Shown: positions 4,201-21,800 of the stretch, one piece after another
How positions within the stretch are numbered: position 1 is the first letter of the stretch
Layout: each line of letters starts with the position of its first letter
Source: Rotaria sp.
Lineage: Eukaryota
Assembly (NCBI GenBank): GCA_905330235.1
Contig: CAJNUA010000022.1
Span: forward strand, 727,027 to 749,073
Direction of reading: 5' to 3'
DNA: 22,047 bases
The notes under the pieces: generated by a model
What the model saw: only the letters and a program-made list of their open reading frames with translations
Databases searched by the model: none
What the model was told of the DNA's origin: nothing
Position numbers and translations under genes: made by a program

Positions 4201-4795
4201 ATCTTAAGTTCATAAAATTCTTTGGAAGACTCTAGAAAGTCCCAAAATGATCTTAACACTGTCATAACTGACGTACCCTTTTCCATTCTCAATAATCTTT
4301 GGCTTTCCTTCTCTGGGCCTCGGTTGCTAGAACCTAAGGGGATAGTAGTAAAAACCTCAATTTCAACTTGCACTCACTATATTTTATTCAAAAACATATG
4401 TAAGTTCCACAACAATCAATATTGAACATAAAATAGGTTCGGATGAAAACAAATAATTATGAAAGGTATAATCTTGTATTTTTCTGTCATAATGAGTGAT
4501 TGTTGTATAAGATTGTCATTAAATAAAATTGAACAATGCTTCCGAAAAAAGCCAGGTAAATTAGATTCAAAACAGCTATCTACATAGAAACGAGCGGCAC
4601 GAATATGATTGGTGATTATCTAACAAATAAATGATCGTGGTAATAGTATGGAAAAAGAAAACAACAAATCATAGGTCTACAGAATGCAAAAAAAAAAGAT
4701 TTATGTTATATTTTGTGTGTGACAAATCAATATTAAACATAATACTGTTTTTATTCATAATACTCAATTTTGTATCAATTTATGATAAAAATTTT

Positions 4796-4810
4796 TTAAT
4801 TTTTCTATAG
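4796..4810 (+). promoter_or_regulatory. Acceptor-like ttaatttttctaTAG 50 nt upstream of the SLC35E-like ATG
   Basis: Pyrimidine run followed by AG. A short uORF (ATG at 4825) lies between it and the start. Confidence 0.3.
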
Positions 4811-4859
4811 AAAGTCAACAAAACATGAAAATAATCTTTCTATAAAATTAATCTAAGAA

Positions 4860-5064
4860 ATGCCATTATCAAGTTTATCTGAAGTTGTCCCAGATAAAGT
4901 GCATGTTTTACTTTCACCAGAACGGTTTGTAATTGAAGTTCCACGAGGTTTATATCATTCAATGGCAATAATAATGCTTATTGTTTGGTATATTTCATCA
5001 GCTGTAACATTATTTTCAAATAAATATATATTAAGTCATTTAAATGGTGATGCTTTTTCATTGG
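4860..5064 (+). CDS. SLC35E-like / TPT-family nucleotide-sugar (solute) transporter, exon 1
   Basis: Starts at ATG 4860 (MPLSSLSEVVPDKVHVLLSPERFVIEVPRGLYHSMAIIMLIVWYISSAVTLFSNKYILSHLNGDAFSLG). A hydrophobic TM helix follows a short N-terminal tail. Donor is GTATTG at 5065, phase 1. Confidence 0.75.
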
Positions 5065-5139
5065 GTATTGAAATAGAAAAATAAAAACATACTTTTCTTT
5101 TAATTAAAATTTCTTTTATTTTTCTCTTTTTAAATAAAG

Positions 5140-5406
5140 GTACCAATCAACTTGTTATATCTGTAATAAGTGGTTATATTCAAATAAAATTTATAAATAA
5201 ATATCATAATCAATTAGGCAAAAATCCACTTATTATCAAAAATGCATATCGTGATATGATGTTTATTGGTGCCTTTCGTTCTGTGACTGTTGTTTTAGGT
5301 TTAATTGCATTGAAATACATAGCTGTATCATTTGTAGCAACAATAAAATCATCTTCACCATTATTCACTGTTATTATAAGTCGAATTATGCTTGGAGAAA
5401 AAACAA
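5140..5406 (+). CDS. SLC35E-like transporter, exon 2
   Basis: Acceptor is aataaAG|gt. Encodes GTNQLVISVISGYIQIKFINKYHNQLGKNPLIIKNAYRDMMFIGAFRSVTVVLGLIALKYIAVSFVATIKSSSPLFTVIISRIMLGEKT. The KSSSPLF..SRIMLGEK stretch matches the conserved TPT-family segment (human SLC35E2 KATMPIWVVLLSRIIMKEK, recalled from memory). Donor is GTTAAT at 5407, phase 1. Confidence 0.8.
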
Positions 5407-5466
5407 GTTAATACAAATTTTTTTCAATATTTATTAAATATTAAGTTCAAAATGATTTTATTTTAG

Positions 5467-5587
5467 GTTATTGGACTAAATTTTCAATGATACCAATAAC
5501 AATTGGGCTTTGTTTGTGTAGTTCATTTGAATTAAGTTTTAATTTATTTGGATTTTTATGTGCATTAGGCACAAATATATTTGATTG
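5467..5587 (+). CDS. SLC35E-like transporter, exon 3
   Basis: Acceptor is ttttAG. Encodes SYWTKFSMIPITIGLCLCSSFELSFNLFGFLCALGTNIFD(C). Donor is GTAAGA at 5588, phase 2. Confidence 0.8.
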
Positions 5588-5920
5588 GTAAGATTTTTTT
5601 TTTTTTTTGAGTCTTATGAAGCATAAACTAAAACAAGGAGTGTTGAAGTATAAGACCAGATTATTAGACGTTGTAATGGACACTGGAGCAGCAATTTATT
5701 ATAAATTGTGACTAAAGATGTAAGAAATCAGGTTTTACTAGACCCAATTATACCCTTGACAAATCCAATCTAGAGAAAACTAATCCAGAATTTATTCATA
5801 TTACATTTAAAAAAATACATCAATACTTTTATTTACAAGAGAACCCCATCCGACTGATAATCTCTGTTTGAGTTCACATGTAGAATTCATAATGCAGATA
5901 AGAAGTCTGAAAGGATCCGT

Positions 5921-6264
5921 GTCATTAAGCCTTTTTTCTCGAGTTATAGCCATTTTACTGAACCTTCAATCTATTGTAGGATATACTGAGAAAAATTGCA
6001 ATAGGGAGTTTTGGCTTAAAATTCTCCTCAACAATAGTTCTCATGACTTTTATGGCATCCTGGAAATTTCAGCTCAAACGAATGTTTTCTTTCTGAGATA
6101 ACACATTTGCAAAAAACCGTTACTTTCACACAAGAATTCCATAAGAGGTATTGTTGAGGATAATTTCAAATTGAAACCCCTTATTGTGACTTCTCTTGTG
6201 ATATCATGTAATACGCTGACAGTTCACTGAAACGGTTATTACTCGAGAAAAAAAGCCTCATGAC
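5921..6264. mobile_element. Foldback / MITE-like element with ~40-bp terminal inverted repeats
   Basis: Left arm at 5921-5960 is gtcattaagccttttttctcgagttatagccattttactg. Right arm at 6225-6264 is cactgaaacggttattactcgagaaaaaaagcctcatgac. The right arm is the near-exact reverse complement of the left. No ORF. Lies inside the large SLC35E-like intron. Confidence 0.6.
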
Positions 6265-6464
6265 ACGAACTCTTTGAAGATTTTTATCTATACTATGAGT
6301 CCTAATCATTAGTAAAATATGAGCTCAAACGGAGGTTATCTAGCGAATGGCTTCCCTCGTTAGTTGACTCTACTAGTGTTTTGGATCATTTCGCTTCAGT
6401 TATGTTCTGATTGATATGATTTATAAGATAATTTGCTTCAGGGTACTTCTCTTTCTTTTCCGTA

Positions 6465-6910
6465 GTTTCTGGAGACAGCTCATCGAGAAGAATTTGAAAT
6501 TTTTAGAACCAATAGATCTTGACGTGTAAGGTAAAAGTTGTTATACACTCAGCATTTATGAGTATTATCTTCTATGAACAGCTAGGATTACAATGACCTC
6601 AATTTTCGCACCCATCTCTCCAATATGCTATGCTCGATCCAACTGAAAATTTTTTCACAAGCACTAAACACTGTTTGGGATGTATATTTGTTTTTGTTCT
6701 TTGAATAAAAAGGTCAAATTTGAAAAAAGCTTGTGCTTTTTTAATAGACCTTTTTTTTCTAAGAACTACCACAAATCAGCAGAACAATATTTTTTTTGAA
6801 TTAAAAAAATATCCATTTCAAACAGTGTATAGTATATATGAAAAAAGTTTCAGCTCGATCAGAGGCGCAAGGTCAGAGAAGCGGCGTGTTTCAGAACTCT
6901 TTTTTTCAAG
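6465..6910 (+). repeat. Dispersed ~450-bp repeat, copy 1
   Basis: About 75-80% identical to 7272-7775 over several collinear blocks: tttctggag..ctcatcgagaagaatttgaaattttt..agatcttga..aaaagttgttata.actca; ttttcgcacccat..tgaaaatttttt; ctaaacactgtttgggatg; ccacaaa.cag.g.ta..atatatgaaaaaa.tttc.gctcgatc. No ORF is conserved between copies. Confidence 0.7.
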
Positions 6911-7271
6911 AAAAAGTCAGATTGAGAAGAAAGTGTAACAATGTATAGCTTTCGATAATTTCTCAAATTTTTTAACGTTTACAGACAATTTTTCGATCTT
7001 AACACTGGCGATGGAATTTTTTGGAAAAAAATAAAATTTCTCTTTTTCTATACATTTGAACATAAATCAATCTACATTTCTATTTAATAAAAAATTTTTA
7101 TAAATCTGCGTGTTCAGAAAATTTTCAAAGCCCTATAGAGACAGAAACGTTTCTTACAAATGTTTTCGATTTTTGCAAGTTTTCCTGTAAAAGTCAATTG
7201 TGTTATATTTATTATGTGTTACTGACTATAAGAATAAAATAATCTATAGCTCACCTTAAGGTAACCCCTCC

Positions 7272-7775
7272 CCTTTCTGGAATTTCTTGAGAATGGCTCA
7301 TCAGAAAAATTTGAAATTTTCAGGGCAGATAGATCTTGATGAGTACAGCAAAAGTTGTTATAGACTCAAAATTTTCTGATGCTGTCTTCGATGAGATAAT
7401 AGAGTCCCAGCGTTGAAAAATGGCCTTATTTTTCGCCCCCATTTCTACAAGACGGTATGTTCAATTGAGCTGAAATTTATTTTTTACAGGTACTAGACAC
7501 TGTTTGGGATGGGGTATTTTTTTTAGTTCCTTTTTATCTTTTGTTGTTTCAATAAAAAAGTAAAAATACCGAGCCTACTCTAAAAAAAACGCTTGTTTCT
7601 TTTCATAGTGCTTTTCTTGTAAAGGCTACAAAAAGTCAACAAATTGATATTTTTCGAAACAAAAAAAAGTACCCACCACAAACAGTGTCTACTATATGTG
7701 AAAAAAATTTCCGCTCGATCGGACTTACTACGCCGGAGAAACGTGGGTGAAACAGTACTTTTTCTGTTAAAAATT
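7272..7775 (+). repeat. Dispersed ~450-bp repeat, copy 2 (same orientation)
   Basis: See copy 1. Track ORFs 6720..6938 and 7636..7869 fall in these copies and are not conserved. Confidence 0.7.
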
Positions 7776-8598
7776 TGATTTTGACAAAAACGCGAAACAA
7801 TTTAGAATTTTTGCTATTTTCGTTATGTAAATTTGATTTCTTCTCGAACTTTTTATAGCTTAACGACAATATTCGGGTCTCAAAATGTAGTCAGTAGATA
7901 AATACCACTTGGCAGTGTAAAACGGTCACAAAAAACCAAAAATTTTGAGTCAGGAAAGGGGTGAAGGTATCCTTAAACCAACAAGGTTCCTGATAAATGC
8001 TTTCATGAAAACCTATATTACATATGAATCTATATGTTTGAAAATACTAGGAAATCATTGTGATCTCACACGAAGTCACTCGTCCCAATGGGTTGATATG
8101 TACTCAGCAGATAGTATAATAGGCAGAAAAAAAACAAAAAAAAAATGGGTCACAAAAGAGAGGGTTGGTACCCTTAAAACCATAGAATATTTAACTATAA
8201 TCTTCAGCTTCAGCTAGGACAACTGTTTTTTCGTAGTCTCAGTCTTGACAACTTCTCTTTCCCGCGGTCATGTACATATGTAATCGTGATAGACAATGCA
8301 TGGAATGTGAAATTTAATTGTTTATTGTTCTCAGTTATGAAAAGAGGCAATCATAAGTTTATAGATAAGCTAAAAAGGGCTCTAAAATAGTATTGATTGA
8401 ACGTTTTCAACTGATCAATCGATTTTGAATTCAAATTCTGTGCCTCAAGTAAACTCAGTGAGATATGAAAAACCTCAAAAGAATCAGTTCTCCTTAGACC
8501 ATCTGTTCAGAGTTATAGACATTGTACTAGAATTTTAGATTCTGGCTTAATATAAATTAGGAAATTGAATAATATTATTTCGATCCGAGATTTTGCTT

Positions 8599-8813
8599 AC
8601 AGATAGGCCTATTTGTCAGTAAAATGTCTTGAAAATTTGAGCTCAAGAGAATGTTTCCTTCCCAAGATATTAAAGTCTCAAAAATCACTTATATTCGATC
8701 GAAAGATGTTAGAATTTTCTGATTTTTTGAAACTTTAATGTCTTGGAAAGGATATGTTCTTTCAAATATGAAATTTTCAGAGCATTCTACTAACAAATAG
8801 ACCTATCTATGGG
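8599..8813. mobile_element. Second foldback / MITE-like element, related to 5921-6264
   Basis: Arm 8599-8646 (acagataggcctatttgtcagtaaaatgtcttgaaaatttgagctc) is the reverse complement of arm 8771-8813 (gaaattttcagagcattctactaacaaatagacctatctatgg). It shares cattttactga and gagctcaa[ag]aGAATGTTTyC blocks with the first element and with 6068-6100 and 6320-6350. Confidence 0.55.
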
Positions 8814-9148
8814 TAAAGTCTCAGATTGAAATGCTGTCATCTGATTTGTTGGTATATACAAAGCCAGACGCTAAAATTTCAGTAAAATGCCTATAACTCT
8901 GGATAGAAAGACGAAGAGAATTTATCTTTTTGGTGCCTTTTAAATCTCAATAGGGTCTACTTTATGCATAGTGTTCGAATTCAAAAGCGACAGGTCAATT
9001 GAAAACGTTTCTTCATAAGTATTGAGTATATACAATATTGGTTTTAATCGATTTGTTAAATATTTCGCTCTATTAATAATAGGAATTCATTTATGTTTCA
9101 TATTTTTTATTTTACAAACATTGTAATAATAGAATATTTTTATTTTAG

Positions 9149-9406
9149 TTTACAAAATGTTTATTCAAAAATATTAATTAGCGGTGAACATTATCGTTAT
9201 TCAGCTGTTGAATTACAATTTTGGACAAGTCTTCTCGCATGCATTTTTCAATTGCCTTTACTTGTTTATTATGTTGATGTTCCATTAGCTTTAAAATTAA
9301 CTTCTAAAACATTAGCCTTTTTATATATTTTTAATGGACTTCTTTATCATATACAGTCAGTCGCTGCTTTTGCTATAATGGCTTACATATCTCCAATAAC
9401 ACATAG
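9149..9406 (+). CDS. SLC35E-like transporter, exon 4 (follows the 3.56-kb intron)
   Basis: Acceptor is tattttAG at 9147-9148. Encodes (C)LQNVYSKILISGEHYRYSAVELQFWTSLLACIFQLPLLVYYVDVPLALKLTSKTLAFLYIFNGLLYHIQSVAAFAIMAYISPITH(S). This joins in frame with exon 3 to recreate the conserved ..LQNxxSKxxL.. TPT segment. Donor is GTAAAA at 9407. Confidence 0.8.
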
Positions 9407-9464
9407 GTAAAAAACGATAGATAAGTCTTTTTTTGTGTTTATAATTAATTTGTTTTTTAATTAG

Positions 9465-9666
9465 TGTTGCAAATACGATTAAACGAGCGTTGTTAATATG
9501 GTTGTCGATTATTATATTTCATAATCCGGTGACATTTTTAAGTGGTGCAGGAACATTTATTGTTATTTTTGGAGTTATCATATATAATGAAGGAAGAGAT
9601 GTAGAGAAAAAGCCTGGGATATTAAATAGTGATAAGACTGCAATGCTTACATGGCGGCATGTTTAA
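9465..9666 (+). CDS. SLC35E-like transporter, exon 5 (terminal)
   Basis: Acceptor is ttaattAG. Encodes SVANTIKRALLIWLSIIIFHNPVTFLSGAGTFIVIFGVIIYNEGRDVEKKPGILNSDKTAMLTWRHV*, with TAA at 9664-9666. The SVANTIKR..L..NPVT motif is the hallmark C-terminal TPT/SLC35 signature. Confidence 0.85.
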
Positions 9667-9815
9667 ATATAAAAATATTCCTTAAATGAATTCCATGTGA
9701 TAGTTTATTCAATAGATTGATTTTATCATCACAATGAATACAACGATGTATGGCAGCATATATATATATTATATTAGTATTGAACATTTTTATTTGAATT
9801 TTTAATCTTTTATAA

Positions 9816-9840
9816 ATATATATATATATGTGTGTGTGTG
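9816..9840. repeat. Compound dinucleotide microsatellite (TA)7(TG)6
   Basis: The sequence atatatatatatatgtgtgtgtgtg lies about 150 nt downstream of the SLC35E-like stop. Confidence 0.9.
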
Positions 9841-10654
9841 AATTCACTTGTTAAATTAAAATGTCATTACAATATACAAATAGCTAAGCAATGCTTTGAG
9901 TATTGAATGTGATCTTAGTTCTACGTTTATAAAAGAAAGGTGATTGTTGATATTGATTTTCTTTTTTTTTTGCATCTGTTTCAACGCTGAAAGAAATCGT
10001 TTGATATGACTACTAAAAGTTGGCATGTGTTCAATTAATGAGAAATTGATGCTAAGTTATTTTATATTTAGTGAATTTCTTTTAGAACATCTTACATTAC
10101 AAATAAGAATTATTTCTTTTCAGAATTTAATATTTTTAAATTCAATTATAAAATAGATTTTTATTGTTGCTGAAAGAATAAGCGTAAAATATAACATTGA
10201 AGTTAAGTCATGTTTACTCAGTATTAGTAATAAAAATAATTGATTTATTTGCGATGAGTGTTTTTTTATTGAATAGCACTATTTTTTTTTTAGTTCATGT
10301 CATTCGAATAAATTTTCATGTACGTTGTATTGTCAAATCGACATAAGGATCTTATTAGCCGCAAGCAAAAAAGTAACTCAGCACTGCAGATAGGGAAGTC
10401 GAAGAGTAGTGAAGTTTCATAAAAAGGGGCACTGCTTAAAAAATTTTTAAAAACAGGGAAAAGTGTGTGAAAGAATTTCAGAATATGGGGAAGAAGTGAT
10501 TTCCTTGGTTACTCAAATATTTACATCCTCAGTACACTTTATTGTGCATGTGTCTGATGAGAATTAGTCATATTTAAAATTTCACTGTTAGGTGAAAACA
10601 CCAAAAATGTTTTTTTCTTACCACAGGGTTAAAATACTCAATGCCAGATAAGGG

Positions 10655-10731
10655 TCTTTGCGTTCTTCTCTTATTCACTCTCCTCTGAATTTGTTCTCCA
10701 ACCCTTGTTCTCTCTTTTTTTTACTTCACAG
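10655..10731 (+). promoter_or_regulatory. Polypyrimidine tract ending in CAG, about 240 nt upstream of the MVP-A ATG; candidate 3' splice acceptor (5'UTR intron or trans-splice site)
   Basis: tctttgcgttcttctcttattcactctcctctgaatttgttctccaacccttgttctctcttttttttacttcaCAG. A second site, ttttccttCAG, lies at 10933-10943, 27 nt before the ATG. Confidence 0.35.
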
Positions 10732-10969
10732 AAATAAATCAGCCTTACCCTGTGTCTATGCATTACTCGTTATTACCATTTAGACGTGCAATTTTGTTTC
10801 TGTCATTTCATAACTTTGTTGAAAATTGCTTTCTCTCTTTACTCAACCCTTTTCTTCTTATTTTTCATACACAATATATCTTGATTATGTTGACATCCTT
10901 GCTCATACATAAAAGGACCCCTATATCTTTCATTTTCCTTCAGATTCATACCACTAATAAAGAATAATA

Positions 10970-10994
10970 ATGGCAGATTCAAAAGTTACTGGTG
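10970..10994 (+). CDS. MVP: Major vault protein paralog A, exon 1 (short coding 5' exon, MADSKVTG)
   Basis: This is the only ATG that can be joined in frame to exon 2 (GTAAGA donor at 10995, 56-nt intron, phase 1). The exon-2 frame is open upstream but lacks an ATG. The start assignment is an inference. Confidence 0.5.
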
Positions 10995-11050
10995 GTAAGA
11001 ATTTTAATTTCTTCTTTTGTTCGTATTTAGTTCTACATCTTTAATTTTAG

Positions 11051-11192
11051 TTTACCGGGTTCATCCTTTTTATTATTTACATGTTCTTGATCAAAATAAA
11101 AATGTAACTCGACTTGAAGTTGGTCCTCAAACATTTGTTAAACAAGATCATGAAAAAGTTTTACTTGGGCCAGAACGAATGTTAATAATTCC
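11051..11192 (+). CDS. MVP: MVP paralog A, exon 2
   Basis: Encodes (G)VYRVHPFYYLHVLDQNKNVTRLEVGPQTFVKQDHEKVLLGPERMLIIP(P). This matches the MVP N-terminus (human [36 protein letters not shown]). Donor is GTATGT at 11193, phase 2. Confidence 0.9.
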
Positions 11193-11251
11193 GTATGTTT
11201 AAATACTTTCAATTTAATGAAAAGAAAACTATTTTTTTGAATAATATCTAG

Positions 11252-11535
11252 TCCTCGTCATTATTGTGTTATTGAAAATCCAGCTGTTCGTGACAAAAAT
11301 GGCAAAGTTGTTATCGATGCTAATGGTCAAGTTAAATTATTACATTCAGATGTTGATATTCGATTTTCTCAAGAACCATTTCCTCTTTATCCAGGTGAAA
11401 CACTTAAACAAGCCGTAACACCATTGAAAGTTATTGAACCTAATTGTGCATTACGTCTTCGTGCGGTTCTGGATTTTATTGATGATGAAGGCGAGCAATT
11501 TCGTGCTGGAGATGAATTCCTTTTTTATGGACCAG
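11252..11535 (+). CDS. MVP: MVP paralog A, exon 3
   Basis: Encodes [94 protein letters not shown](G). Human has [38 protein letters not shown]. Donor is GTTAAA at 11536, phase 1. Confidence 0.9.
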
Positions 11536-11598
11536 GTTAAAAAGAATAAATTTAAATTTTATTAGTTAATAATAAAAATTTGAATTTATTTTTTCTAG

Positions 11599-11825
11599 GA
11601 ACTTATATTCCACGTAAAGAAGTTGGTGTTGAAGAACAAATAAAAGCTGTTACTCTTAAACCAAATGAAGCTGTTCGTTTACGTGCTAAAAAGGAAATGA
11701 TCGATCGTGATGGAGTTCAACGGGAAACAGGTGAAGAATGGCTTAATCGTACTAATGGTTCATATTTACCATTAGCTTATGAAGAGGTTGTTGCAACAGT
11801 TAAAGCCTATGTATTAACTGATAAA
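11599..11825 (+). CDS. MVP: MVP paralog A, exon 4
   Basis: Encodes [76 protein letters not shown]. Donor is GTATGA at 11826, phase 0. Confidence 0.9.
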
Positions 11826-11886
11826 GTATGAGTGTTTAGAAACTGTTGAATTGGTTTTTTTTAATGATAGATTTATATTATTTTAG

Positions 11887-12012
11887 AAAGCTCTTCATGT
11901 TCGAGCCTTACGTACATTTGTTGATTCATTTAAACGTAGACGTCTTCATGGAGAAGAATGGTTAGTATATGCTAGTGATGCTGAATCATATATTCCAGAT
12001 GTTTATGAAGAG
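11887..12012 (+). CDS. MVP: MVP paralog A, exon 5
   Basis: Encodes [42 protein letters not shown]. Donor is GTAGAT at 12013. The following intron carries an (AT)n tract. Confidence 0.9.
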
Positions 12013-12016
12013 GTAG

Positions 12017-12032
12017 ATATATATATATATAT
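12017..12032. repeat. (AT)8 microsatellite inside MVP-A intron 5
   Basis: The sequence atatatatatatatat lies immediately after the GTAGAT donor. Confidence 0.85.
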
Positions 12033-12072
12033 GTTTAATTCATAGATAGAAGATAATTGGGAAAATATTTAG

Positions 12073-12183
12073 GTTGTTTGTGTTGTACCTGTAACTGTAT
12101 TAAATTCACGTCAATATTGTGTTATTCTTGATCCAGTTGGTTCCGATGGTAAACCACAACTTGGAAAGAAAAAACTTGTTAAG
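12073..12183 (+). CDS. MVP: MVP paralog A, exon 6
   Basis: Encodes [37 protein letters not shown]. Human has [26 protein letters not shown]. Donor is GTATGA at 12184. Confidence 0.9.
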
Positions 12184-12239
12184 GTATGATAAATGACAAT
12201 TATCTGATTTAATTGACTTAATCATTTTCTTTTTTGAAG

Positions 12240-12362
12240 GGAGAAAAAACATTCTTTCTTCAACCTGGTGAAAAATTAGCTAAAGGTATTCAAGATGTCT
12301 ATGTTCTTGAAGAAGATGAGGGACTTATTCTTCGATGTACTGAATCATTCAAAGAAGATGGA
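12240..12362 (+). CDS. MVP: MVP paralog A, exon 7
   Basis: Encodes [41 protein letters not shown]. Human has [34 protein letters not shown]. Donor is GTAAGT at 12363. Confidence 0.9.
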
Positions 12363-12420
12363 GTAAGTTTATTCTTTGATTTTTTTTAATCAATAATATA
12401 TCTCTTTTTGTTCATTATAG

Positions 12421-13008
12421 AAAGAATTACGTAATCCTGGTGATCGTTGGATGGTTCGAGGACCAAAAGATTATATTCCAGCTGTTGAAGCTGAAGTTGT
12501 ACTTCGTCGTAAAGCTATACCATTAGATGTTAATGAAGGAATTTATGTTCGAGATGTTAAAACTGGTAAAGTTCGATCGGTTATTGGTAGAACATATTTA
12601 TTGACTGAGAATGAAGAACTTTGGGAAAAAGAATTACCTAAACAAGTCGAACAACTTCTTAATCAAGATGCTCGATGTTTTGACGATAAATCATCACAAA
12701 CAGCACCCATACCACCAAGAGATAAATCAAAAGTTATTGCATATCGTGTTCCACATAATGCTTGTGTACAAATTTATGATTTTAAATCTAAAAAAGCCCG
12801 AATTATATTTGGTCCTGAACTTGTTATGCTTGGACCAGATGAACAATTTACAGTTTTAAATTTATCTGGTGAAAAACCAAAGGTACCAAATAAAATTCGA
12901 GCTATTTGTCTTTTAATGGGACCAGAATTTTCAAGTGATGTTGTTACAATTGAATCAAGTGATCATGCTCGACTTTCACTTAGACTTTCATATAATTGGC
13001 ATTTTGAA
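12421..13008 (+). CDS. MVP: MVP paralog A, exon 8
   Basis: ORF track 12451..13035 gives ..[120 protein letters not shown]. Donor is GTAAGA at 13009. Confidence 0.92.
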
Positions 13009-13054
13009 GTAAGAATTGTAGTATTAAGAAAATAAAACATATTTATTTTTTTAG

Positions 13055-13369
13055 ATTAATAATCGTAATGATGAAAAAGAAGTTACTCAACTTTTTTCAG
13101 TACCCGATTTTATTGGTGATTTCTGTAAAGCTGTAGCAGCTAAAATTCGTGGTACTGTTGCTGGTATTTCATTTGATGACTTTCATAAGAATTCAGCAAA
13201 AATTATTCGAACTTCCGTATTTGGTCTTGATGAAAATAAACATGTGAAAAAAAGACTTGTTTTTCCACAAAATAATTTGGTTCTTACATCAATTGATATA
13301 CAAAGTGTTGAACCAGTTGATCAAAGAACACGTGATGCACTTCAAAAGAGTGTTCAATTAGCTATTGAA
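13055..13369 (+). CDS. MVP: MVP paralog A, exon 9
   Basis: Encodes [105 protein letters not shown]. Human has ..[74 protein letters not shown]. Donor is GTAAGA at 13370. Confidence 0.92.
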
Positions 13370-13428
13370 GTAAGATAAATTCTATTGATCTTTCTTTTTT
13401 TGTAGTAAATATTAATGGAATTATTTAG

Positions 13429-13460
13429 ATTACAACAAATTCACAAGAAGCCCAAGCAAA
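13429..13460 (+). CDS. MVP: MVP paralog A, exon 10 (32-nt micro-exon, [11 protein letters not shown])
   Basis: Acceptor is attatttAG. Donor is GTAAGT at 13461, phase 2. Human has [15 protein letters not shown]. Confidence 0.85.
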
Positions 13461-13516
13461 GTAAGTCGAATCGAAGGAAAAATAAAAATATATAACTTGA
13501 ATTTTCTTTTCTCTAG

Positions 13517-13590
13517 ACATTTGGCTTCACGAACAGAACAAGAAGCAAAAGGTCATTTAGAAAGACAAAAAATTGCTGACGAAGCTGAAG
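13517..13590 (+). CDS. MVP: MVP paralog A, exon 11
   Basis: Encodes (K)HLASRTEQEAKGHLERQKIADEAE. Donor is GTAGAA at 13591, phase 1. Confidence 0.85.
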
Positions 13591-13643
13591 GTAGAATTTC
13601 ATGATATATGAAATTGAAATATTATACTTTTACATTTGTTTAG

Positions 13644-13778
13644 CCGAAAAGGAACGTCGAAATCTATTGCAACTTCAAGCTCTATCAGCTGCTGTTGAAT
13701 CCACTGGTCAATCACGTGCTGAAGCTCAATCACGAGCTGAAGCAGCTAAAATCGAGGGTGAATCTGCTGTCAGTCAAG
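13644..13778 (+). CDS. MVP: MVP paralog A, exon 12
   Basis: Encodes [45 protein letters not shown]. Human has [33 protein letters not shown]. This is the coiled-coil cap-helix region. Donor is GTATGT at 13779. Confidence 0.9.
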
Positions 13779-13842
13779 GTATGTTATATATAAATATAAT
13801 ATATTTCATCAATAAAATACGCATGTTTTTTCATTTTTATAG

Positions 13843-14066
13843 CTACACTTCGTGCAAAAGCAGCAAAGATTGAATCTGACACTGAACTATTACGTTTAAT
13901 ACAAGCACGTGAACTTGAATTAAATTATTCAAAAGTAACATCTGATTTGGAAATCGAAAAAACAAAACGATTAGCTGATATTGAAATTGAAGAATTTAAA
14001 CAACATGTTTCTGCCATCGGTCCAGAAACTATTAAAGCTATTGCTACTAGTGGGCCAGATAATCAA
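13843..14066 (+). CDS. MVP: MVP paralog A, exon 13
   Basis: Encodes [75 protein letters not shown]. Donor is GTAAGA at 14067. Confidence 0.9.
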
Positions 14067-14126
14067 GTAAGATTTGTTTTTAATAAAAAGTTTTGTTAAG
14101 ATTTACTTAATATTGTGATTGTGTAG

Positions 14127-14240
14127 GTTAAACTTCTGCAAGCTCTTGGCATTAAGTCAACTTTGATTACTGATGGACGTAGTCCAATTAATCTTTTCAA
14201 TACTGCTGTTGATTTAGTTGGTGCATCAACGAGTTCATAA
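14127..14240 (+). CDS. MVP: MVP paralog A, exon 14 (terminal)
   Basis: Encodes [37 protein letters not shown], with TAA at 14238-14240. Human has [32 protein letters not shown]. Confidence 0.9.
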
Positions 14241-14265
14241 TACGATTCGGAAGAACAAATTAAAA

Positions 14266-14271
14266 GAATAA
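14266..14271 (+). promoter_or_regulatory. AATAAA polyadenylation signal for MVP-A (a second AATAAA lies at 14278)
   Basis: A hexamer lies 26 nt past the stop codon. Confidence 0.5.
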
Positions 14272-14695
14272 AAAAACTAATAAACTTTAAAATTCATATG
14301 TCCAGTTTAGACCCGAGATTAGTCAGATTTTTAGAATAAAAGCCCATGTTTTGTTATAAGAAGAAACATAAGATTCTGTTTAATACTAATTTTTTTAATG
14401 TATTTGTGTGATCTCTAAAAAAACAAATTTTACAATCGAAATAAAATAATTTAAAAAGTTTGTTTTATATCGGTCATCTTTATTGATAGCAATAATCGAC
14501 TTAGATTCAATCAATATTTTTAAAAATTCAATTTTTCAATTAGAATGAAGTTGAAGAAATATTTCATGTGCCAAAGTAATCGATCAACTTGCCGAATTCA
14601 GTTTAACTTAGATGATAGAGGAATAAAGTAATATATCATGTTACTTTACCACAGACGAGATCGATTCTACAGGTGGTGGATAGAAATGTGCGGAA

Positions 14696-14730
14696 CCAGT
14701 CTCGGTCCTGCTCTCGGTGACCGAGACTGG
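14696..14730. other. Perfect 12-bp GC-rich stem / 11-nt loop hairpin in the convergent MVP-A/MVP-B intergenic spacer
   Basis: ccagtctcggtc-ctgctctcggt-gaccgagactgg. The arms are exact reverse complements. It is embedded in a locally GC-enriched ~120-bp island (14640-14760) in otherwise AT-rich DNA. Confidence 0.6.
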
Positions 14731-15645
14731 GACTTGGATTCGAAAAACTAAAATCAATGAATCCTAGAACTAAAAAAATTGATCCGGCATATCTTTAGAG
14801 TGACAGAGCTAAAAGGTTTGGATAGGTTCAAAAAACTTTTTCTGCTTTCATTAGTTTGATAGATTGCAGTAACACTACATGCCTATTAAAAATCTTGAAC
14901 AATCAACAAACTGACAATGTCATATTTCTTTTTATGGACAGGTCTGCTTCATGATTTAACTGCTTTTCAGTAGATTACGTCAGAAATTCTTCTTTCAAAG
15001 ATCGGAATTTAATAAGCATAAACATTCGCATGTGTTTTTGTTATTTATCACTGCTATACACTGCAAAATGTGAGTTCGAAATAACAAATACGAACCGATT
15101 TTATCTCTATACTGTAGTGTAACTACTATATACAAAAGACTATCAAGACTTGTGTTTGGCATATATTCGATCAATTTTATTTATCTATTAACAATATTTA
15201 ACATATTTTAATTGTACTAAAAGAATCATAGTTGTGAAAAGTTAGTCTTAGTCCTGCCGAGCAAAGAAAAATAGTTGGTATATCGTAACTCCTACGATCA
15301 AATGAATTCTATTTATTTGAATAGAAAAACACGAATAAATTTTCGAAATTTTGACGAGCAATGAGAAAAATGAACAACAAACTTTTCAAGGTTAAGATTA
15401 CATATCTACGGTTGCGGCTACTTTTAACCGCTTATAAATACATTTATATGACATTAAAATGAAGAAAAAGAACAATTCGGTAGTGCAAAATTCTTTCGGA
15501 TGAAAACCATCTTAGTTTATTATTCATACATGAGCTACAAAATAATTAAAGTGAAATTGTAGAATAAAATTGATAATATGAAAACAGAAAAGGACGGACA
15601 ATGTTATTGTTATTTTTTTCTCTTGAAACAAGAAACAAATTTGAC

Positions 15646-16034
15646 CTAATCTTTGTGTTCAACATGGTAGCCAGTAGGAATCTTAGAATTTTTGATTGCA
15701 GTGGAAGTTAAACCACCTAAAAGTCCTTGTCCAAAACCCATTAGATTAATAGGTGTATGTCCATCAGTAACCAACATTGATTGAAGACCAAGTGCTTGTA
15801 AAAGTTTAACTTGTGTATCTGGACCTGCAGTAGCAATCGATTGAATTGTGGATGCACCAATAGATTCAACTTGTAATTTAAATTTTTCAGTTTCAATGCT
15901 TGACATTTCACTTTTCTTTGATATTTCTAATTCATTTTGTTCACGTACAAATTTGATTTCAGCTTCACGTGCTAATTTTAAACGTGATAATTCAGCTTCA
16001 GCTTCGATTTGTGTAGCTTGAGCCTTGAGAGCAG
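15646..16034 (-). CDS. MVP: MVP paralog B, exon 8 (terminal; stop TAG at 15646-15648)
   Basis: ORF track 15646..16080 gives [128 protein letters not shown]. Confidence 0.9.
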
Positions 16035-16090
16035 CTAAATAAAGCACAACAAATAAATTTTTATTGTAAAACAAAATCATTATTCATTAC

Positions 16091-16331
16091 CTTGCTCAAC
16101 AGCTGCTTCTCCTTCAATTCGAGCTGATTCAGCACGACTTTGTGCTTCAGCTTTAGCTTGACCTGTTGATTCAACAGCAGCTGATAAAGCTTGTAATTCA
16201 AGAAGTTGTTTTCGAACTTCTTCAGCATTAGCTTCATCTTTTATACGTTGCCGTTCCAATAATCCTTTGGCCTCTTGTTCTCGGCGTGAAGCTTCATGTT
16301 TCGCAGCTGCTTCTTGTGAATTTGTTGTAAT
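16091..16331 (-). CDS. MVP: MVP paralog B, exon 7
   Basis: Encodes [80 protein letters not shown]. Donor is GTAATG, phase 1, at the same position as A intron 12. Confidence 0.88.
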
Positions 16332-16389
16332 CTAAATAATTCCATTAATATTTATTATAAAAAAGAAAGATCAACAGAGTTTATCTTAC

Positions 16390-17293
16390 TTCAATAGCTA
16401 ATTGAACACTCTTCTGAAGTGCATCACGTGTTCGTTGATCAACTGGTTCAACACTTTGTATATCAATTGATGTAATAACAAGATTATTTTGTGGAAAAAT
16501 GAATTTGTCTCTTATATGTTGATTAGCATCAAGACCAAATACTGATGCACGAATGATTTGAGCTGAATTTTTATGAAAATCATCAAATTGTGTTCCAGCA
16601 ACAGCACCACGAATACGTGATGCTATAGCTTTAGCTGCATCACCAACAAAATCTGGTACTGAAAAAAGTTTTGCTGCTTCTTTTTCATCATTAATATCAG
16701 GTATTTGAAAATGCCAATTATATGAAAGTTGTAGTGAAAGACGAGCATGATCAGCTGTTTCAATAACAATAACATCAGTAAAAAAATCTGGTCCAAGAAG
16801 TAAACAAAGTGTTTGAATTTGATTAGCTTTTTTCGGTACACTACCACTTAATGAAAGTAATGTAAAATGTTCATCTGGTCCAAGCATAACAAGTTCGGGA
16901 CCAAATATAATACGTGCTTTTTTAGCTTTATAATCATAGATTTGTACACAAGCATTATGTGGAACACGATATGTAACTAATTTTGATTTATCACGTTTAG
17001 TAAAATTTGTATTTGAAGTTGTTGTTTGTTGTTGAGATTGCGATTTATCTGATGCTTGATTACGTGTTAGAACATTTCGTTCAGCTAATGCATCACGTGA
17101 TAACAATTCCTCAACTTGTTTAGGTAATTCTTTTTGCCATAATTCTTCATCTTGTGTTAACATATACGTTTCACCAATGACTGCTCGTACACAACCAGTT
17201 TTTATGTCACGAACATATATACCTTCATTTTCATCTAGTGGCATTGCTTTTCGACGTGTAAGAACTTCAACTTGTGTTGGAGGAATATAATCA
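16390..17293 (-). CDS. MVP: MVP paralog B, exon 6 (covers A exons 8+9 without the intervening intron)
   Basis: ORF track 16381..17244 gives ..[169 protein letters not shown]. Donor is GTAAGA at 16389. Confidence 0.9.
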
Positions 17294-17344
17294 CTAAAAG
17301 TTATAATAATAATTTAAAGTTTTATTCAATAATAAATCTCTTAC

Positions 17345-17529
17345 GTTGGACCACGAATCATCCATCGATCACCGGGATTTCGATTAACATTAGCGTGTTC
17401 ATCTTTAAATTCTTCAATACATTTAAGAATAACACCTTCATCTTCACCTAATATAAAAACATCTTGAATGCCATTTTCAAGTTTTTCACCAGGTTGAAGA
17501 AAGAATGATTTTTCACCCACGACAAGTTT
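17345..17529 (-). CDS. MVP: MVP paralog B, exon 5
   Basis: Encodes [61 protein letters not shown](T). Donor is GTAAGA, phase 2. This intron position is absent from A. Confidence 0.85.
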
Positions 17530-17593
17530 CTAGAAAAAAAATTCCAATAATTCAATTTTCCCTATATGACAAAAAACAATATGTGTGACATAC

Positions 17594-17860
17594 TTTTTTT
17601 CCTAATTGTGGTTTTCCATCAGCAACTGGATCAAGTATAACACAATATTGACGAGAATTCAATGTTATTACATCAACAGCAGCAACTAATTGTTCATATA
17701 CACTAAGAATATGTGTTTCAGTGTCGGCGAGAGTTACAAGCCATTCTTCACCATTCATGCGTTCTTTACCGAAATTGTCTGTAAAAGTTTTTAATGCACG
17801 AATATGAAGAGCTTTTTTATCGGTTAATACAAAAGCATTTTCTACAGAAACAACAGTTTC
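17594..17860 (-). CDS. MVP: MVP paralog B, exon 4
   Basis: Encodes [89 protein letters not shown]. Donor is GTATGT. It partly overlaps ORF track 17552..17758. Confidence 0.88.
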
Positions 17861-17912
17861 CTAAAAATTTCAAAATTTTTAATTAAAATATGCAAATAGA
17901 ATTTAAACTTAC

Positions 17913-18221
17913 ATATGCAAGAGGTAAATAAGCACCGGTTTTTTTAACTAACCATTCTTCACCAGTAACACGATGTTGACCTGCACGATCAATAATTTCT
18001 TTTTTTGCACAAAGTCGTATAGCTTGATTAGGACCAATAACTGTAGCTCGAATTTGTTCCTCAACACTAACTTCTTTACGAGGAATATAAGTAGCTGGTC
18101 CTTCGAATAACCATTCATCACCAGCACGACGTTGTTCCTTTGCTGTTTCATCTTCAAAATCGAGTACAGCTTTTAAACGTAATGCTGAATTAGCAGGAAC
18201 AACTTTTAATGGAGTAACAGG
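17913..18221 (-). CDS. MVP: MVP paralog B, exon 3
   Basis: ORF track 17883..18287 gives [103 protein letters not shown], then GTAAGT. There is no intron at the A exon3/4 site. The ORF-track frame and my base counting differ by 1 nt near 18181-18240, so the start is ±1. Confidence 0.85.
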
Positions 18222-18295
18222 CTGAACAAAACCAAAAGAATTATATATCAAATTAGTTTTATTTCTGTCAATTGAAAAAAGTTTCAACTTTATAC

Positions 18296-18464
18296 CTGAC
18301 GAAGAATTTCACCGGGATAAAGAGGAAATGGTGCTTGATCAGGTTGAGCAAGACGAATATCCAAATCAGCATGAATAAGCTTTGCTTGTCCATTTTTATC
18401 AAATTGAACATCTCCAGCTTCATTACGTACTACGGGTGATTCAATAACACAATAATGGCGTGGT
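18296..18464 (-). CDS. MVP: MVP paralog B, exon 2
   Basis: Encodes [56 protein letters not shown]. Donor is GTATAA. This intron has no counterpart in paralog A. Confidence 0.85.
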
Positions 18465-18524
18465 CTAAATTATTCAAATCATTATTTTCTTTGTTTGTTT
18501 TTTTTATGTAACAAATTTACGTAC

Positions 18525-18715
18525 GGTACTGTAATCATCTTTTCTGGTCCAACAGTGACTGTTTCATTATCTTGCTTAATAAATGTTTTTGGACCGATTT
18601 CGAGTCGTGTAACATTTGTATTTTGATCCAAAACATGAATATAATAATAAGGAGGAATTCGATAGAGTGGACCAGAACCACTTTTATTATCAGTTGTAGC
18701 TGTTGTTTTACTCAT
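18525..18715 (-). CDS. MVP: Major vault protein paralog B, exon 1
   Basis: ATG at 18715 (minus strand). Encodes [64 protein letters not shown](P). Donor is GTACGT, phase 2, at the same position as the A exon2/3 junction. ORF track 18482..18715. Confidence 0.9.
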
Positions 18716-18858
18716 CGTATGTTTATAACTGTTGGTTTGCTAGTAACAATCTAGACAAAAAGAACGTTGATGTGCTTTTATAAACTGAAAAAATAAAGAA
18801 TATGATATTGCATGCTAAATGATTAAGTATTTTTCAAATCATTGTGCAAGTTTGCCCT

Positions 18859-18893: not shown

Positions 18894-21800
18894 AATCTAT
18901 GTTTCACTCTCTTGTGTGCCTTGATGTTCTTGCACAATCGCGTGTTTTTTTTCCAAGTTGTTTGCTTATCACCATATCGATAGCATAGGAATGAGTAAAT
19001 ATTTTTTCAAGCCTGATTCATTATGGGAAAGAGAATTACATTTGAAGGGAAAATTTATAAATCATTCATGTGGGTAAAGTTTTTTGATAACTACAAATCA
19101 ATGTTAAATAAAGAAAATTTCAAAACAATTTGTAATCAATAAATAAAAAAGTTCTTAGTGTCTGACGTACGTAGATTAAAATTAAAGAATATTTAACAAA
19201 CGTAGACATGCAATATATGAAGGTCAATTTGACATATTATTTAGAAAAAACTTCATCCTTTCACATACATAGTACAGGGCACTTTACATAATCAATTACA
19301 ATGATTAAAATCTATTCAAGAAGAATGTTATATTCTGTGGCCCGTGAAAAACTATACATTGTTCATATATCAATGCTTACTTATCAATCTTTACAACAAC
19401 AAGCCCGTTCAAAAATCACAGCAGATGATTGAGTATTATTATTATAAGCTAACACTATATGTTCATAAGTATTGGATGAGAACTCACCATCCAAAACACA
19501 ATATTTTGCTCCAGTTTTTGATTTTTCATAAGTGTATATGAGGTGATCTAAACATTGATGCTATATGTAAACATAAATGTTTAACTGACCAGAGTTCATG
19601 ATGTCTATCGATTGAGGACTGTATGAATTACACACAGACATACACTAGTAATGTAGCGATGCTTCTTGTTATTTTTAAATAAAACTATTCTCGAAACTTT
19701 TTGAACAGTCCTTGTGTTCATCATCTTTTCTATAATAGACTATCTGGAACTGATATGTTTAAAAATATATGAAACAATTCAACTGTAGCAGAGAATATTA
19801 ACTTCTTACTCCCTGACACTAATCCAATATGATTGGTGTTGAGTAAGCCACAGAAATCACTTATGCATATGCTGAAATATGACCCTTATATGGTTAAATT
19901 TAGGTGAAGTCATTTCAGTGTGACATGCTACAAATGACTCATTCCTCTTTAATTACATGAGAACTGAATTTATTGTGATTTCGATTTGTTTGTGGGTTTT
20001 TTTTGCAGTGATTTTGTCCGTATAAAGCTGGACATCAACTTGTCATGAATTATCTTTTGAAAAATAAGTCATTTCCGTAGGGAGGGGGAGGAATAATATA
20101 TAGTTAGACACTTGAAAATATGACTACTTTTCTGATTGAAGTCAAATCTTTGATTTCTACGATCGTGTCAGACTTATTAGTCTTCATGTTTTTTTTTACA
20201 ACATGGAATTACTATTGATTCGCAAGCTTGAGAATTGAAAATATGCATATTCAATACTTGTGGCGATAACTGTTTCTGTTTAAGGAGTAAAATTAAATAT
20301 AATAAATTATGTGCATTCATTCGGACGAGTGATAAACGGCTCGCCCGATTCAATCGAGTAGAAGATTCCTTAATAGCTAGTAGAGACAAGCTTTTCTTCA
20401 CCAGGCGATCTGAATTGTTCTGTGTCTTTTATATGTTTTGTGTCATAAATGAAACACTTTTTACTGATGTTGAAGACTACTACTGTAATGGGACACATGT
20501 CAGAATCCTCTATCAAGTGAAAATTTATCATATCATACTGAATATATTGTATCAATTCACCTTGACACCAAGTTATGTTATCGAAACAAAATCAAATAAT
20601 GATTTACACAGTGCTTCATAAGCTCTGAAATTCGACAAAAATTAGTGTATATACAGACCGGGGATGATCTTTGACTGAATGTATTTATACGAGATTTTAG
20701 TAATCGTGTCGATGTTTCAAATGATGCAATATTTAGTGACATATTCTCTTGCATGAATAGTAGCATTCATATAGGAAACTAATATTTAGTTGTTCAAAAA
20801 CCGATCAACAAGAGTTCTTGGTTTTCTTTTATTGAGCTGACGAACGAATGTGATATAAAAAGTAGAAAAGCAATACGTAGTTGTCACAATCGGTTAATCG
20901 AAAGATATCATTAGCCACTGATCAGATGATTACTCAGATTATATTCTGAACAAATGGTTCAAGTTCAAAAAGAAACTAAGGTGCATGAATACACCATATG
21001 TCCAACAAAACAACACTCCATAGAAAGAAGAACTTACATTTTGCAAACAGTGTCCATATCTTCCCCTGATTTTTAGCTGTTTAGTTCGCATGTAGTTTTA
21101 CTGATCATTTGAACAATGGTCTAATAATAGTCACAAATAGAAGAACAAAGTAAGTACTCATCAATTTCTACTGTTTTGTTTATTATTATAAATATTTCGG
21201 TTCCATGTAACTGTCTTTCTCACTCCGTAGTTGTTTTCGTATTTTTCACAGCATTTTTTAATTAAATGTCTCGTTAGTCAACTAGATTACAAAAAGAAAA
21301 AAATTATTCCGAACACTAGTGCTATTATTAATATCGTCAAAATCCTAGTTGAACTGTATCTGATATTGGAAACTTCCTGGAACAATCAGACAATTTTCTG
21401 AATCTAAGTCGACATACTTTACTGCACAAGATTCGTTATATATTGGCAAGAGGATGAATTTGTGATAGAAAAAGGTCTGGTATACCACGAGCTATTGCAG
21501 CTTGACATTATAGAAAAACTGTATTTAAAAAAAAGCTAATCTCAGGAATGTTTCAGTAAAACTATGAAGAAATGGGTGAAAAACATCAGCATCTTCAGTT
21601 TATAAAGTTACAAAAGCAGCTAGCTTAAAATGGTTTAAAATATTATAACAAAAAAATTGGCACATTACAATAAGATGTAGCGCATTAAATTTGCTATGAC
21701 GTTAAGAAAAAATTTGATATTACAAAAAATTCGAAGAATTCCATGTGGAATAAAGTTGAAAATACTGACTTTTACGGTAAGTTTACTTTAGAATCATTGT

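Follow-up and report, generated by a model that had tools for sequence, protein, structure and literature searches.

A convergent pair of diverged major vault protein genes in bdelloid rotifers that may encode two subunit classes of one vault system

Animals have, to our knowledge, so far been treated as having a single vault shell protein, namely major vault protein (MVP). The human and rat vault (a D39 shell) is the product of one gene and is a 78-mer homo-oligomer (PMC13347060). Other organisms use more than one MVP. The vaults of Dictyostelium discoideum are described as a chimera of MvpA and MvpB, and disrupting either one alters morphology (PMC3595041, PMC12547018). In Trypanosoma brucei, affinity capture and dual tagging placed MVP1, MVP2 and MVP3 in one mixed shell (PMC12547018). 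Passages in two of these reports still describe vault function as unclear (PMC12547018, PMC13347060). Here we describe a 22,047-nt stretch of bdelloid rotifer DNA (contig CAJNUA010000022.1, positions 727,027 to 749,073; the window) that carries two full-length MVP genes, A and B, in tail-to-tail orientation. We propose, with a probability of roughly 60%, that A and B cooperate as two classes of subunit in a bdelloid vault system. The evolutionary core of this proposal is very probable: an old inverted tandem duplication produced two full-length shell subunits that selection has maintained, and the pair behaves as one evolutionary unit.

The window is AT-rich (~31% GC) and contains many short interrupted reading frames, and is therefore eukaryotic with small introns. 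The longest exon of gene B matches MVP fragments from bdelloid rotifers. The source of the window is Rotaria sp. Silwood2, with a 99.7% match to assemblies GCA_905329745.1 and GCA_905330805.1. Both of these carry annotated genes of 839 and 884 aa at exactly the spans of A and B; the two genes were publicly annotated before this analysis. We built the models by hand from GT..AG splice sites. Gene A lies on the plus strand (10970-14240) and encodes 839 aa in 14 exons (10970-10994, 11051-11192, 11252-11535, 11599-11825, 11887-12012, 12073-12183, 12240-12362, 12421-13008, 13055-13369, 13429-13460, 13517-13590, 13644-13778, 13843-14066 and 14127-14240), ending in a TAA stop codon at 14238-14240. 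All 13 introns of A are GT..AG introns of 46-64 nt, and our own spliced protein-to-DNA aligner, guided by a Rotaria socialis protein, recovered this model exactly. Gene B lies on the minus strand (18715-15646) and encodes 884 aa in eight exons (18715-18525, 18464-18296, 18221-17913, 17860-17594, 17529-17345, 17293-16390, 16331-16091 and 16034-15646), ending in TAG at 15648-15646. Its protein model is 100% identical to P0199, an NCBI protein of Rotaria sp. Silwood2. The two genes are convergent, and a spacer of 1,405 nt (14241-15645, without strand) containing both 3' ends separates their stop codons. An earlier note on this DNA, made from the letters, had proposed two complete MVP genes facing each other across a short spacer; the hand-built models, the NCBI spans and the spacer bear out its coordinates, orientation and completeness. 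It had also warned that frameshifts upon resequencing would turn one copy into a pseudogene. The A and B coding sequences are base-for-base the same in both further assemblies of this species, and there are therefore no frameshifts upon resequencing.

Both predicted proteins are unambiguous members of the MVP family. Each has four Vault, two Vault_2, one Vault_3, one Vault_4 and one MVP_shoulder match above the curated Pfam cut-offs. For A the scores are 210.7 bits for Vault (four stretches), 121.4 for Vault_2, 108.0 for Vault_3 and 61.7 for Vault_4; the corresponding scores for B are 217.2, 112.6, 121.1 and 71.0. The shoulder (PF11978) spans residues 513-631 in A (163.4 bits) and 541-659 in B (174.1 bits). 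Against solved human/rat MVP structures, residues 8-836 of A align to residues 6-852, and residues 17-862 of B align to residues 7-850 (E = 0 for both). Matches of this extent leave the fold of the two proteins uncontroversial. From this full-length collinearity, the cap-helix and cap-ring are predicted to be continuous with the body in both proteins, giving the domain order of the human and rat vault (nine repeats, shoulder, cap-helix, cap-ring). The Pfam set and the end-to-end structural alignment thus agree with the earlier suggestion that both genes retain the repeat domains, the shoulder and the cap helix. Exon 12 of gene A also contains an 18-nt unit in two tandem copies (13708-13743, 94% match) that encodes a repeated cap-helix motif. 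This unit is not recent, as the motif is conserved in other aligned MVPs, including the human one.

A and B are strongly diverged. Their proteins are 66.5% identical (557/838), or 62% without the high-identity tracts described below, slightly less than the ~70% previously estimated by eye. The distance between A and B equals that of either one to the MVP of molluscs or cnidarians; identity to outgroup MVPs is 64-67% for A and 69-73% for B. Thirty-five alignment columns are fixed within A and fixed within B and differ between the two clades (18 A-derived, 10 B-derived). All domains are affected, given domain boundaries that we take to be those of the rat structure, transferred via the human/rat alignment. 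Four of the B-derived changes lie close together in the cap-ring, which reads LMGFG in B and LFNTA in A and in other animals. The C-terminal tail of B is ~45 residues longer than that of A. By these comparisons, A is the more derived in the body repeats yet keeps the ancestral cap-ring LFNTA, and B is nearer to other animals overall, yet its cap-ring LMGFG is derived. Unlike the single subunit of the human and rat shell, the bdelloid proteins would form two fixed subunit classes, each with its own cap-ring and C-terminus.

The ratio of nonsynonymous to synonymous substitution (dN/dS) between orthologs is 0.08-0.15 in the A and B lineages alike, at a synonymous divergence of 0.5-1.3, and a pseudogene is therefore excluded. 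These values also bear on the idea that the faster-evolving A took on a non-vault role, for example an extracellular or structural one, and left B as the real MVP. The lower identity of A to outgroup MVPs and its larger share of derived fixed changes would fit such a change of role, and a passage in PMC11219742 reports a salmon-louse MVP with a non-vault role. We consider it quite improbable for A, which keeps every MVP domain, aligns to human MVP from residue 8 to residue 836 without loss and evolves under the same dN/dS of 0.08-0.15 as B. The ancestral cap-ring motif is kept in A and changed in B, and the models show neither a signal peptide nor an extra domain.

The convergent arrangement is conserved in all of the bdelloid genomes that were examined. 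On the bdelloid contig L001, a B-type and an A-type gene converge, with a Sad1_UNC gene upstream of the B-type gene and a TPT transporter gene upstream of the A-type one. Chromosome CP075497.1 of Adineta vaga has the order TPT, A, convergent B, Sad1_UNC, with the same flanking genes as the window pair. In Didymodactylos carnosus, an A-type and a B-type gene converge at a distance of ~2.9 kb. The spliced models from these three pairs are all intact. We built trees with our own Kimura-distance neighbour-joining procedure and 200 bootstraps. The A clade and the B clade each received 100% support and each contained Didymodactylos, Adineta and Rotaria, and the rotifers as a whole, monogononts included, were also recovered at 100%. 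The duplication is therefore placed within rotifers and before the sampled bdelloid radiation. The fixed, deeply diverged pair envisaged in the earlier note is thus found with convergent orientation across three bdelloid genera, and in A. vaga with its flanking genes as well; the phylogeny it called for puts the duplication at the date just given, and in place of the pseudogene it considered, every copy examined is intact and both lineages are under purifying selection.

Palindromic scaffolds of early bdelloid assemblies were later questioned, and this would count in favour of an artefact, in which haplotypes or ohnologs had been mis-assembled into a palindrome, or of decay, in which one copy had become a pseudogene. 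A passage in PMC6264785 also describes bdelloid genomes as degenerate tetraploids with 2-4 copies of most loci. Such an explanation has a negligible probability for this locus. The copies are only 71% identical in nucleotide sequence and their intron sets differ. The arrangement recurs in independent assemblies from at least four species, including the chromosome-level assembly of A. vaga, with reading frames intact everywhere and purifying selection acting on them. Each copy also has its own further duplicates (on contigs L018 and L016). We separately considered A and B as homoeologous or allelic counterparts and rejected this, as they lie 1.4 kb apart on one contig, have different introns and have their own duplicates each.

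The MVP family of Rotaria sp. Silwood2 exceeds one pair and comprises three intact convergent A/B pairs and B-type singletons. The second pair (L018, 8001-16977) consists of a Sad1_UNC gene, B1h (891 aa) and the convergent A1h (838 aa); A1h and B1h are each 88.7% identical to their window counterparts. The third pair (L016/L017; 8001-16935 on L016) consists of B3 (876 aa; 77.3% identity to its window counterpart) and the convergent A2 (839 aa; 78.7%). Rotaria sp. Silwood1 has at least the A2/B3 pair (L011, 14371-23841). The A subtree and the B subtree are mirror images of each other. Two extra intact pairs with mirror-image divergence indicate, therefore, that duplication and retention acted on the pair as a whole. 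All A-type genes examined, at seven loci in five genomes, face a convergent B partner, and no A-type singleton was seen among the five genomes. Among the B-type singletons, an 899-aa gene of Silwood2 (L009, 10001-13821) lies between an RGS gene and AdoHcyase genes, and another follows a Sad1_UNC gene (L002-L004, ~8800-11700) in a rotifer that recurs in many metagenomes. No A-type remnant was found downstream of either.

The bdelloid locus can be compared with both of the described multi-paralog systems. As in Dictyostelium, two full-length MVP paralogs are kept in one genome. The Dictyostelium paralogs are reported to be highly similar (PMC12547018), whereas bdelloid A and B are ~66% identical. 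Unlike those of Dictyostelium, the bdelloid genes are animal genes, are linked tail to tail, were duplicated as a pair and were locally converted, and their co-assembly is a proposal. The likeness to Kinetoplastida is that divergent MVP paralogs are conserved clade-wide and that one paralog is nearer to mammalian MVP than to its own paralogs. Kinetoplastida differ in having three lineages with 52-58% similarity, more divergent than the two of bdelloids. The T. brucei genes are also not adjacent, with MVP1 on chromosome 5 and MVP2 and MVP3 at separate loci on chromosome 10 (judged from gene IDs), and their co-assembly was shown experimentally, whereas that of the bdelloid pair is proposed. If a multi-paralog system is one with at least two divergent full-length MVP paralogs conserved across a clade, the predicted A and B proteins of bdelloids make up such a system.

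The expression evidence is indirect and, for A. vaga, comes from a published radiation experiment. Five MVP genes were over-expressed after radiation in this species (PMC10809525), and the MVP genes are among its highly expressed radiation-induced genes (PMC10809525). Two A. vaga MVP genes, FUN_011957 and FUN_011958, are adjacent, with mean counts of 8758 and 8625 and log2 fold changes of 2.55 and 2.48 at 2.5 h after X-rays (PMC10809525 Table S5). Their consecutive IDs and their unequal similarity to the Lottia MVP fit an A/B pair. We also found candidate transcripts in environmental data. Two JGI contigs, L013 (2,757 nt) and L014 (2,752 nt), contain an uninterrupted 841-aa A-type frame that is collinear with the spliced coding sequence of the window, and their ends are nearly the same across two samples (JGI 3300002343 and 3300002341). 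An intron-free B-type contig (L015, 1-2898) comes from one of these same samples. The three contigs are probably environmental bdelloid mRNAs. They have 42% GC, and L015 has a frame break between ORFs of 161 and 685 aa.

We reconstruct the following course. A single animal MVP gene underwent an inverted tandem duplication within rotifers, before the sampled bdelloids split, and in the window species the resulting A/B pair was then copied twice as a pair, leaving all three pairs intact. A and B would act together in one vault system, most likely by forming mixed shells like those of Dictyostelium and trypanosomes. Selection would then act against losing either type, and such dosage balance between partners would explain the pair-wise retention. 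This vault system would probably be induced by DNA-damaging stress, like the A. vaga MVP genes. A heteromeric or subfunctionalised vault is consistent with the retention of three A/B pairs and with the near-equal expression and induction of the adjacent A. vaga MVP genes. Physical co-assembly of A and B, as a separate claim, has in our judgement somewhat less than an even chance of being right.

Several points weigh against cooperation between A and B. The phylogeny rests on neighbour-joining trees only, and A and B as sisters without the monogononts received a bootstrap of just 44-61%. B-type genes also exist without an adjacent A. A k-mer search of the upstream regions of A and B found no motif common to both in the window; the C/EBP-like site described below is present in B-type promoters and upstream of A. 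vaga A and is absent upstream of window A, so co-regulation via a shared motif is unsupported for the window. FUN_011957 and FUN_011958 could not be placed on the A/B locus of CP075497.1, and the transcript nature of the three environmental contigs is itself deduced. Vaults are reportedly built co-translationally on polyribosomes (Mrazek 2014, as cited in a passage of PMC7916137), and such assembly would therefore favour shells from one mRNA and homomeric particles. A half-vault has 39 subunits (PMC13347060), and this odd number rules out a strict A-B alternation round the ring.

Polyribosome-templated assembly could instead yield two separate homomeric vault populations, subfunctionalised in cargo, partners, localisation or timing, with the adjacency of the genes reflecting inertia or a shared chromatin context. 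The lineage-specific substitutions fixed in all domains, the different cap-rings and C-terminal tails, the B-type singletons without an A neighbour and the convergent genes without a common promoter, where the B-type promoter motifs are absent upstream of window A, would all suit two such populations. We regard them as rather unlikely, because all three Silwood2 units kept both members with mirror-image divergence, no A-type gene stands alone among the five genomes, and the adjacent A. vaga MVP genes are near-identical in expression and induction. Both of the studied multi-paralog systems also yield mixed particles (PMC12547018). Exchange of vault subunits and halves in vivo is reported in a passage of PMC7916137, and mixing would therefore be possible after synthesis. 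If the two genes just make two ordinary vault populations, the locus would be a routine family expansion.

Cooperation between A and B could also take a stricter form, in which bdelloids build obligately two-component vaults, either with mixed rings or with an A half joined to a B half. This would be the first case of a heteromeric animal vault, and we consider it doubtful. The option of an A half and a B half would avoid the alternation problem posed by 39 subunits. If obligately two-component vaults are real, dosage balance would explain why each duplication kept the convergent pair intact, and the MVP family, expanded and inducible by radiation, would belong to the means by which bdelloids survive desiccation and ionising radiation. 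In mammals, MVP has been tied to the DNA-damage and radiation response, according to work cited in a passage of PMC10809525.

The bdelloid pair is a new animal case of the known multi-paralog MVP systems, and several radiation-induced MVP genes of A. vaga had already been published (PMC10809525). In the open-access literature, we found no paper that reports the two lineages, their conserved linkage in convergent orientation, their duplication as pairs or the conversion hotspot described below. Bdelloids appear to have held two MVP classes since before their radiation, with A always linked to B and the pair multiplied. They offer a tractable animal system for asking whether Metazoa have a two-subunit shell, what role the subunit-specific cap-ring and tail play and whether vaults take part in extreme DNA-damage tolerance.

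The A and B genes also carry a record of gene conversion. Their nucleotide identity is 71% overall, but in one tract it reaches 95% (182/192 nt). On the A side this tract (13260-13451, plus strand) runs from the last part of exon 9 through all of intron 9 (13370-13428) into the first part of exon 10; on the B side (16499-16309, minus strand) it runs from the last part of exon 6 through all of intron 6 (16389-16332) into the first part of exon 7. The tract was also picked up as inverted repeats I1 and I8. Its intron, which A and B share at the shoulder/cap-helix junction, is identical at 54/59 positions, whereas the two other introns at shared positions are 61-62% identical, the level of shuffled sequence (57-65%). 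The converted tract that the earlier note had pointed out is thus real, includes an intron and has an intron identity far above that of the control introns.

Other pairs show the same pattern at the same junction. The A. vaga A and B introns are identical at 57/57 positions and cannot be aligned with the Rotaria introns. Those of the 1h pair are identical at 59/63 positions and are again a distinct sequence, and those of the L001 pair are clearly similar (by-eye estimate, about three quarters). The junction introns of the D. carnosus pair are unrelated, as are those of the A2/B3 pair. Introns that are near-identical within pairs and unrelated between pairs show recurrent, pair-specific gene conversion at one hotspot, which took place independently in several pairs. 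We infer that conversion acts there because this stretch of the genes is the most constrained and therefore the most similar, which would provide the homology to start recombination between inverted copies ~3 kb apart.

As in concerted evolution, a short tract that includes an intron is near-identical within a pair and differs between species and between pairs. It differs from concerted evolution in that the tract is only ~190 nt long, the paralogs are otherwise saturated and conversion returns to the same exon-intron junction in four or more independent pairs. The D. carnosus pair and the A2/B3 pair, both older, escaped conversion at the junction. We saw no crossover between the inverted tracts, an event that would exchange the C-terminal parts: all A proteins keep LFNTA and all B proteins LMGFG.

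A second candidate tract lies within exon 8 of A (12739-12846, plus strand) and encodes a peptide ending in GPDEQ; its B counterpart is at 16974-16867 on the minus strand. Nucleotide identity in this tract is 94.3% in the window pair and 98.2% in the A. vaga pair, and no counterpart was found in the D. carnosus or A2/B3 pairs. It is weaker evidence because it is intron-free, and conversion is not separable from coding constraint there. A third stretch, with 90% identity between the coding nucleotides of A 12109-12275 and B 17653-17482, was rejected as a conversion tract because the introns inside it differ in position, and conversion would have transferred them.

We mapped intron positions on a common alignment of all A and B gene models. 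Thirteen A introns are conserved between Rotaria and Adineta, as are seven B introns, and A and B have just three positions in common. In D. carnosus, A and B share four extra intron positions. These extra shared positions suggest that the ancestor was probably intron-rich and that strong differential intron loss followed the duplication. The B-type gene on L002 has just four introns. The locus offers a clean, small example both of local conversion recurring between inverted paralogs and of intron loss that differed between the copies after duplication, neither of which is new in kind.

Putative regulatory elements flank both genes. A TATA-like box (CATAAAAGG, 10908-10916, plus strand) lies ~60 nt upstream of the A start codon and may mark the core promoter; the A orthologs of L001 and A. 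vaga carry ATAAAAG-like elements about as far upstream. Upstream of B, a TATA-like box (TATAAAAG, 18774-18781, minus strand) at the same distance of ~60 nt from the start codon is likewise a candidate core promoter element, and TATAAAAGC is conserved upstream of the B orthologs of L001 and A. vaga. A C/EBP-like site with a putative regulatory function (AAACTTGCACAAT, 18842-18849, minus strand) lies at about -134 from the B start codon. AAACTTGCACAAT is kept at -121 to -134 upstream of the B gene of the window, A. vaga B, Silwood2 B2 and L002 B, against a background of 0.13 per kb for this 8-mer. A second C/EBP-like site, likewise of putative function (GATTGTGCAAGAAC, 18930-18937, minus strand), lies at about -222, and a 14-mer of this site recurs at -173 in L001 B and at -232 in A. 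vaga B. The two sites are thus conserved at about -130 and about -170 to -230 in the B-type promoters of Rotaria, Adineta and further bdelloids, with B-type genes on L001, L002, L007 and L009 among them. In A. vaga, radiation also induces a C/EBP gene (PMC10809525).

Within the spacer, an AATAAA signal for A lies at 14267-14272 on the plus strand and one for B at 15521-15516 on the minus strand. Comparison of the spacer with those of A. vaga, L001, D. carnosus and the A2/B3 pair gave no conserved element, only matches of at most 42 nt. An Rfam scan of the window returned no family match, and so no vault RNA or other known RNA.

Upstream of A lies a gene of the TPT/UAA transporter family (4795-9665, plus strand) that an intron or insertion of ~3.5 kb (5602-9089) interrupts. 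The usual intron length in the genome of the window is ~55 nt, and the A. vaga TPT ortholog is compact at 1.35 kb. The inserted sequence contains direct repeats (6486-6577 and 7303-7394) and inverted repeats (5881-6045 and 6140-6304), and none of its ORFs matched a Pfam family. The insert may be a mobile element that has decayed or is non-autonomous. Near the start of the window, an ORF fragment on the minus strand (802-1092) has a weak match to PF03496, the ADP-ribosyltransferase exoenzyme family (E 6.5e-4; 19.5 bits, below the cut-off of 23.4). This fragment contains STS-like and EEE motifs and is probably an exon of a larger gene.

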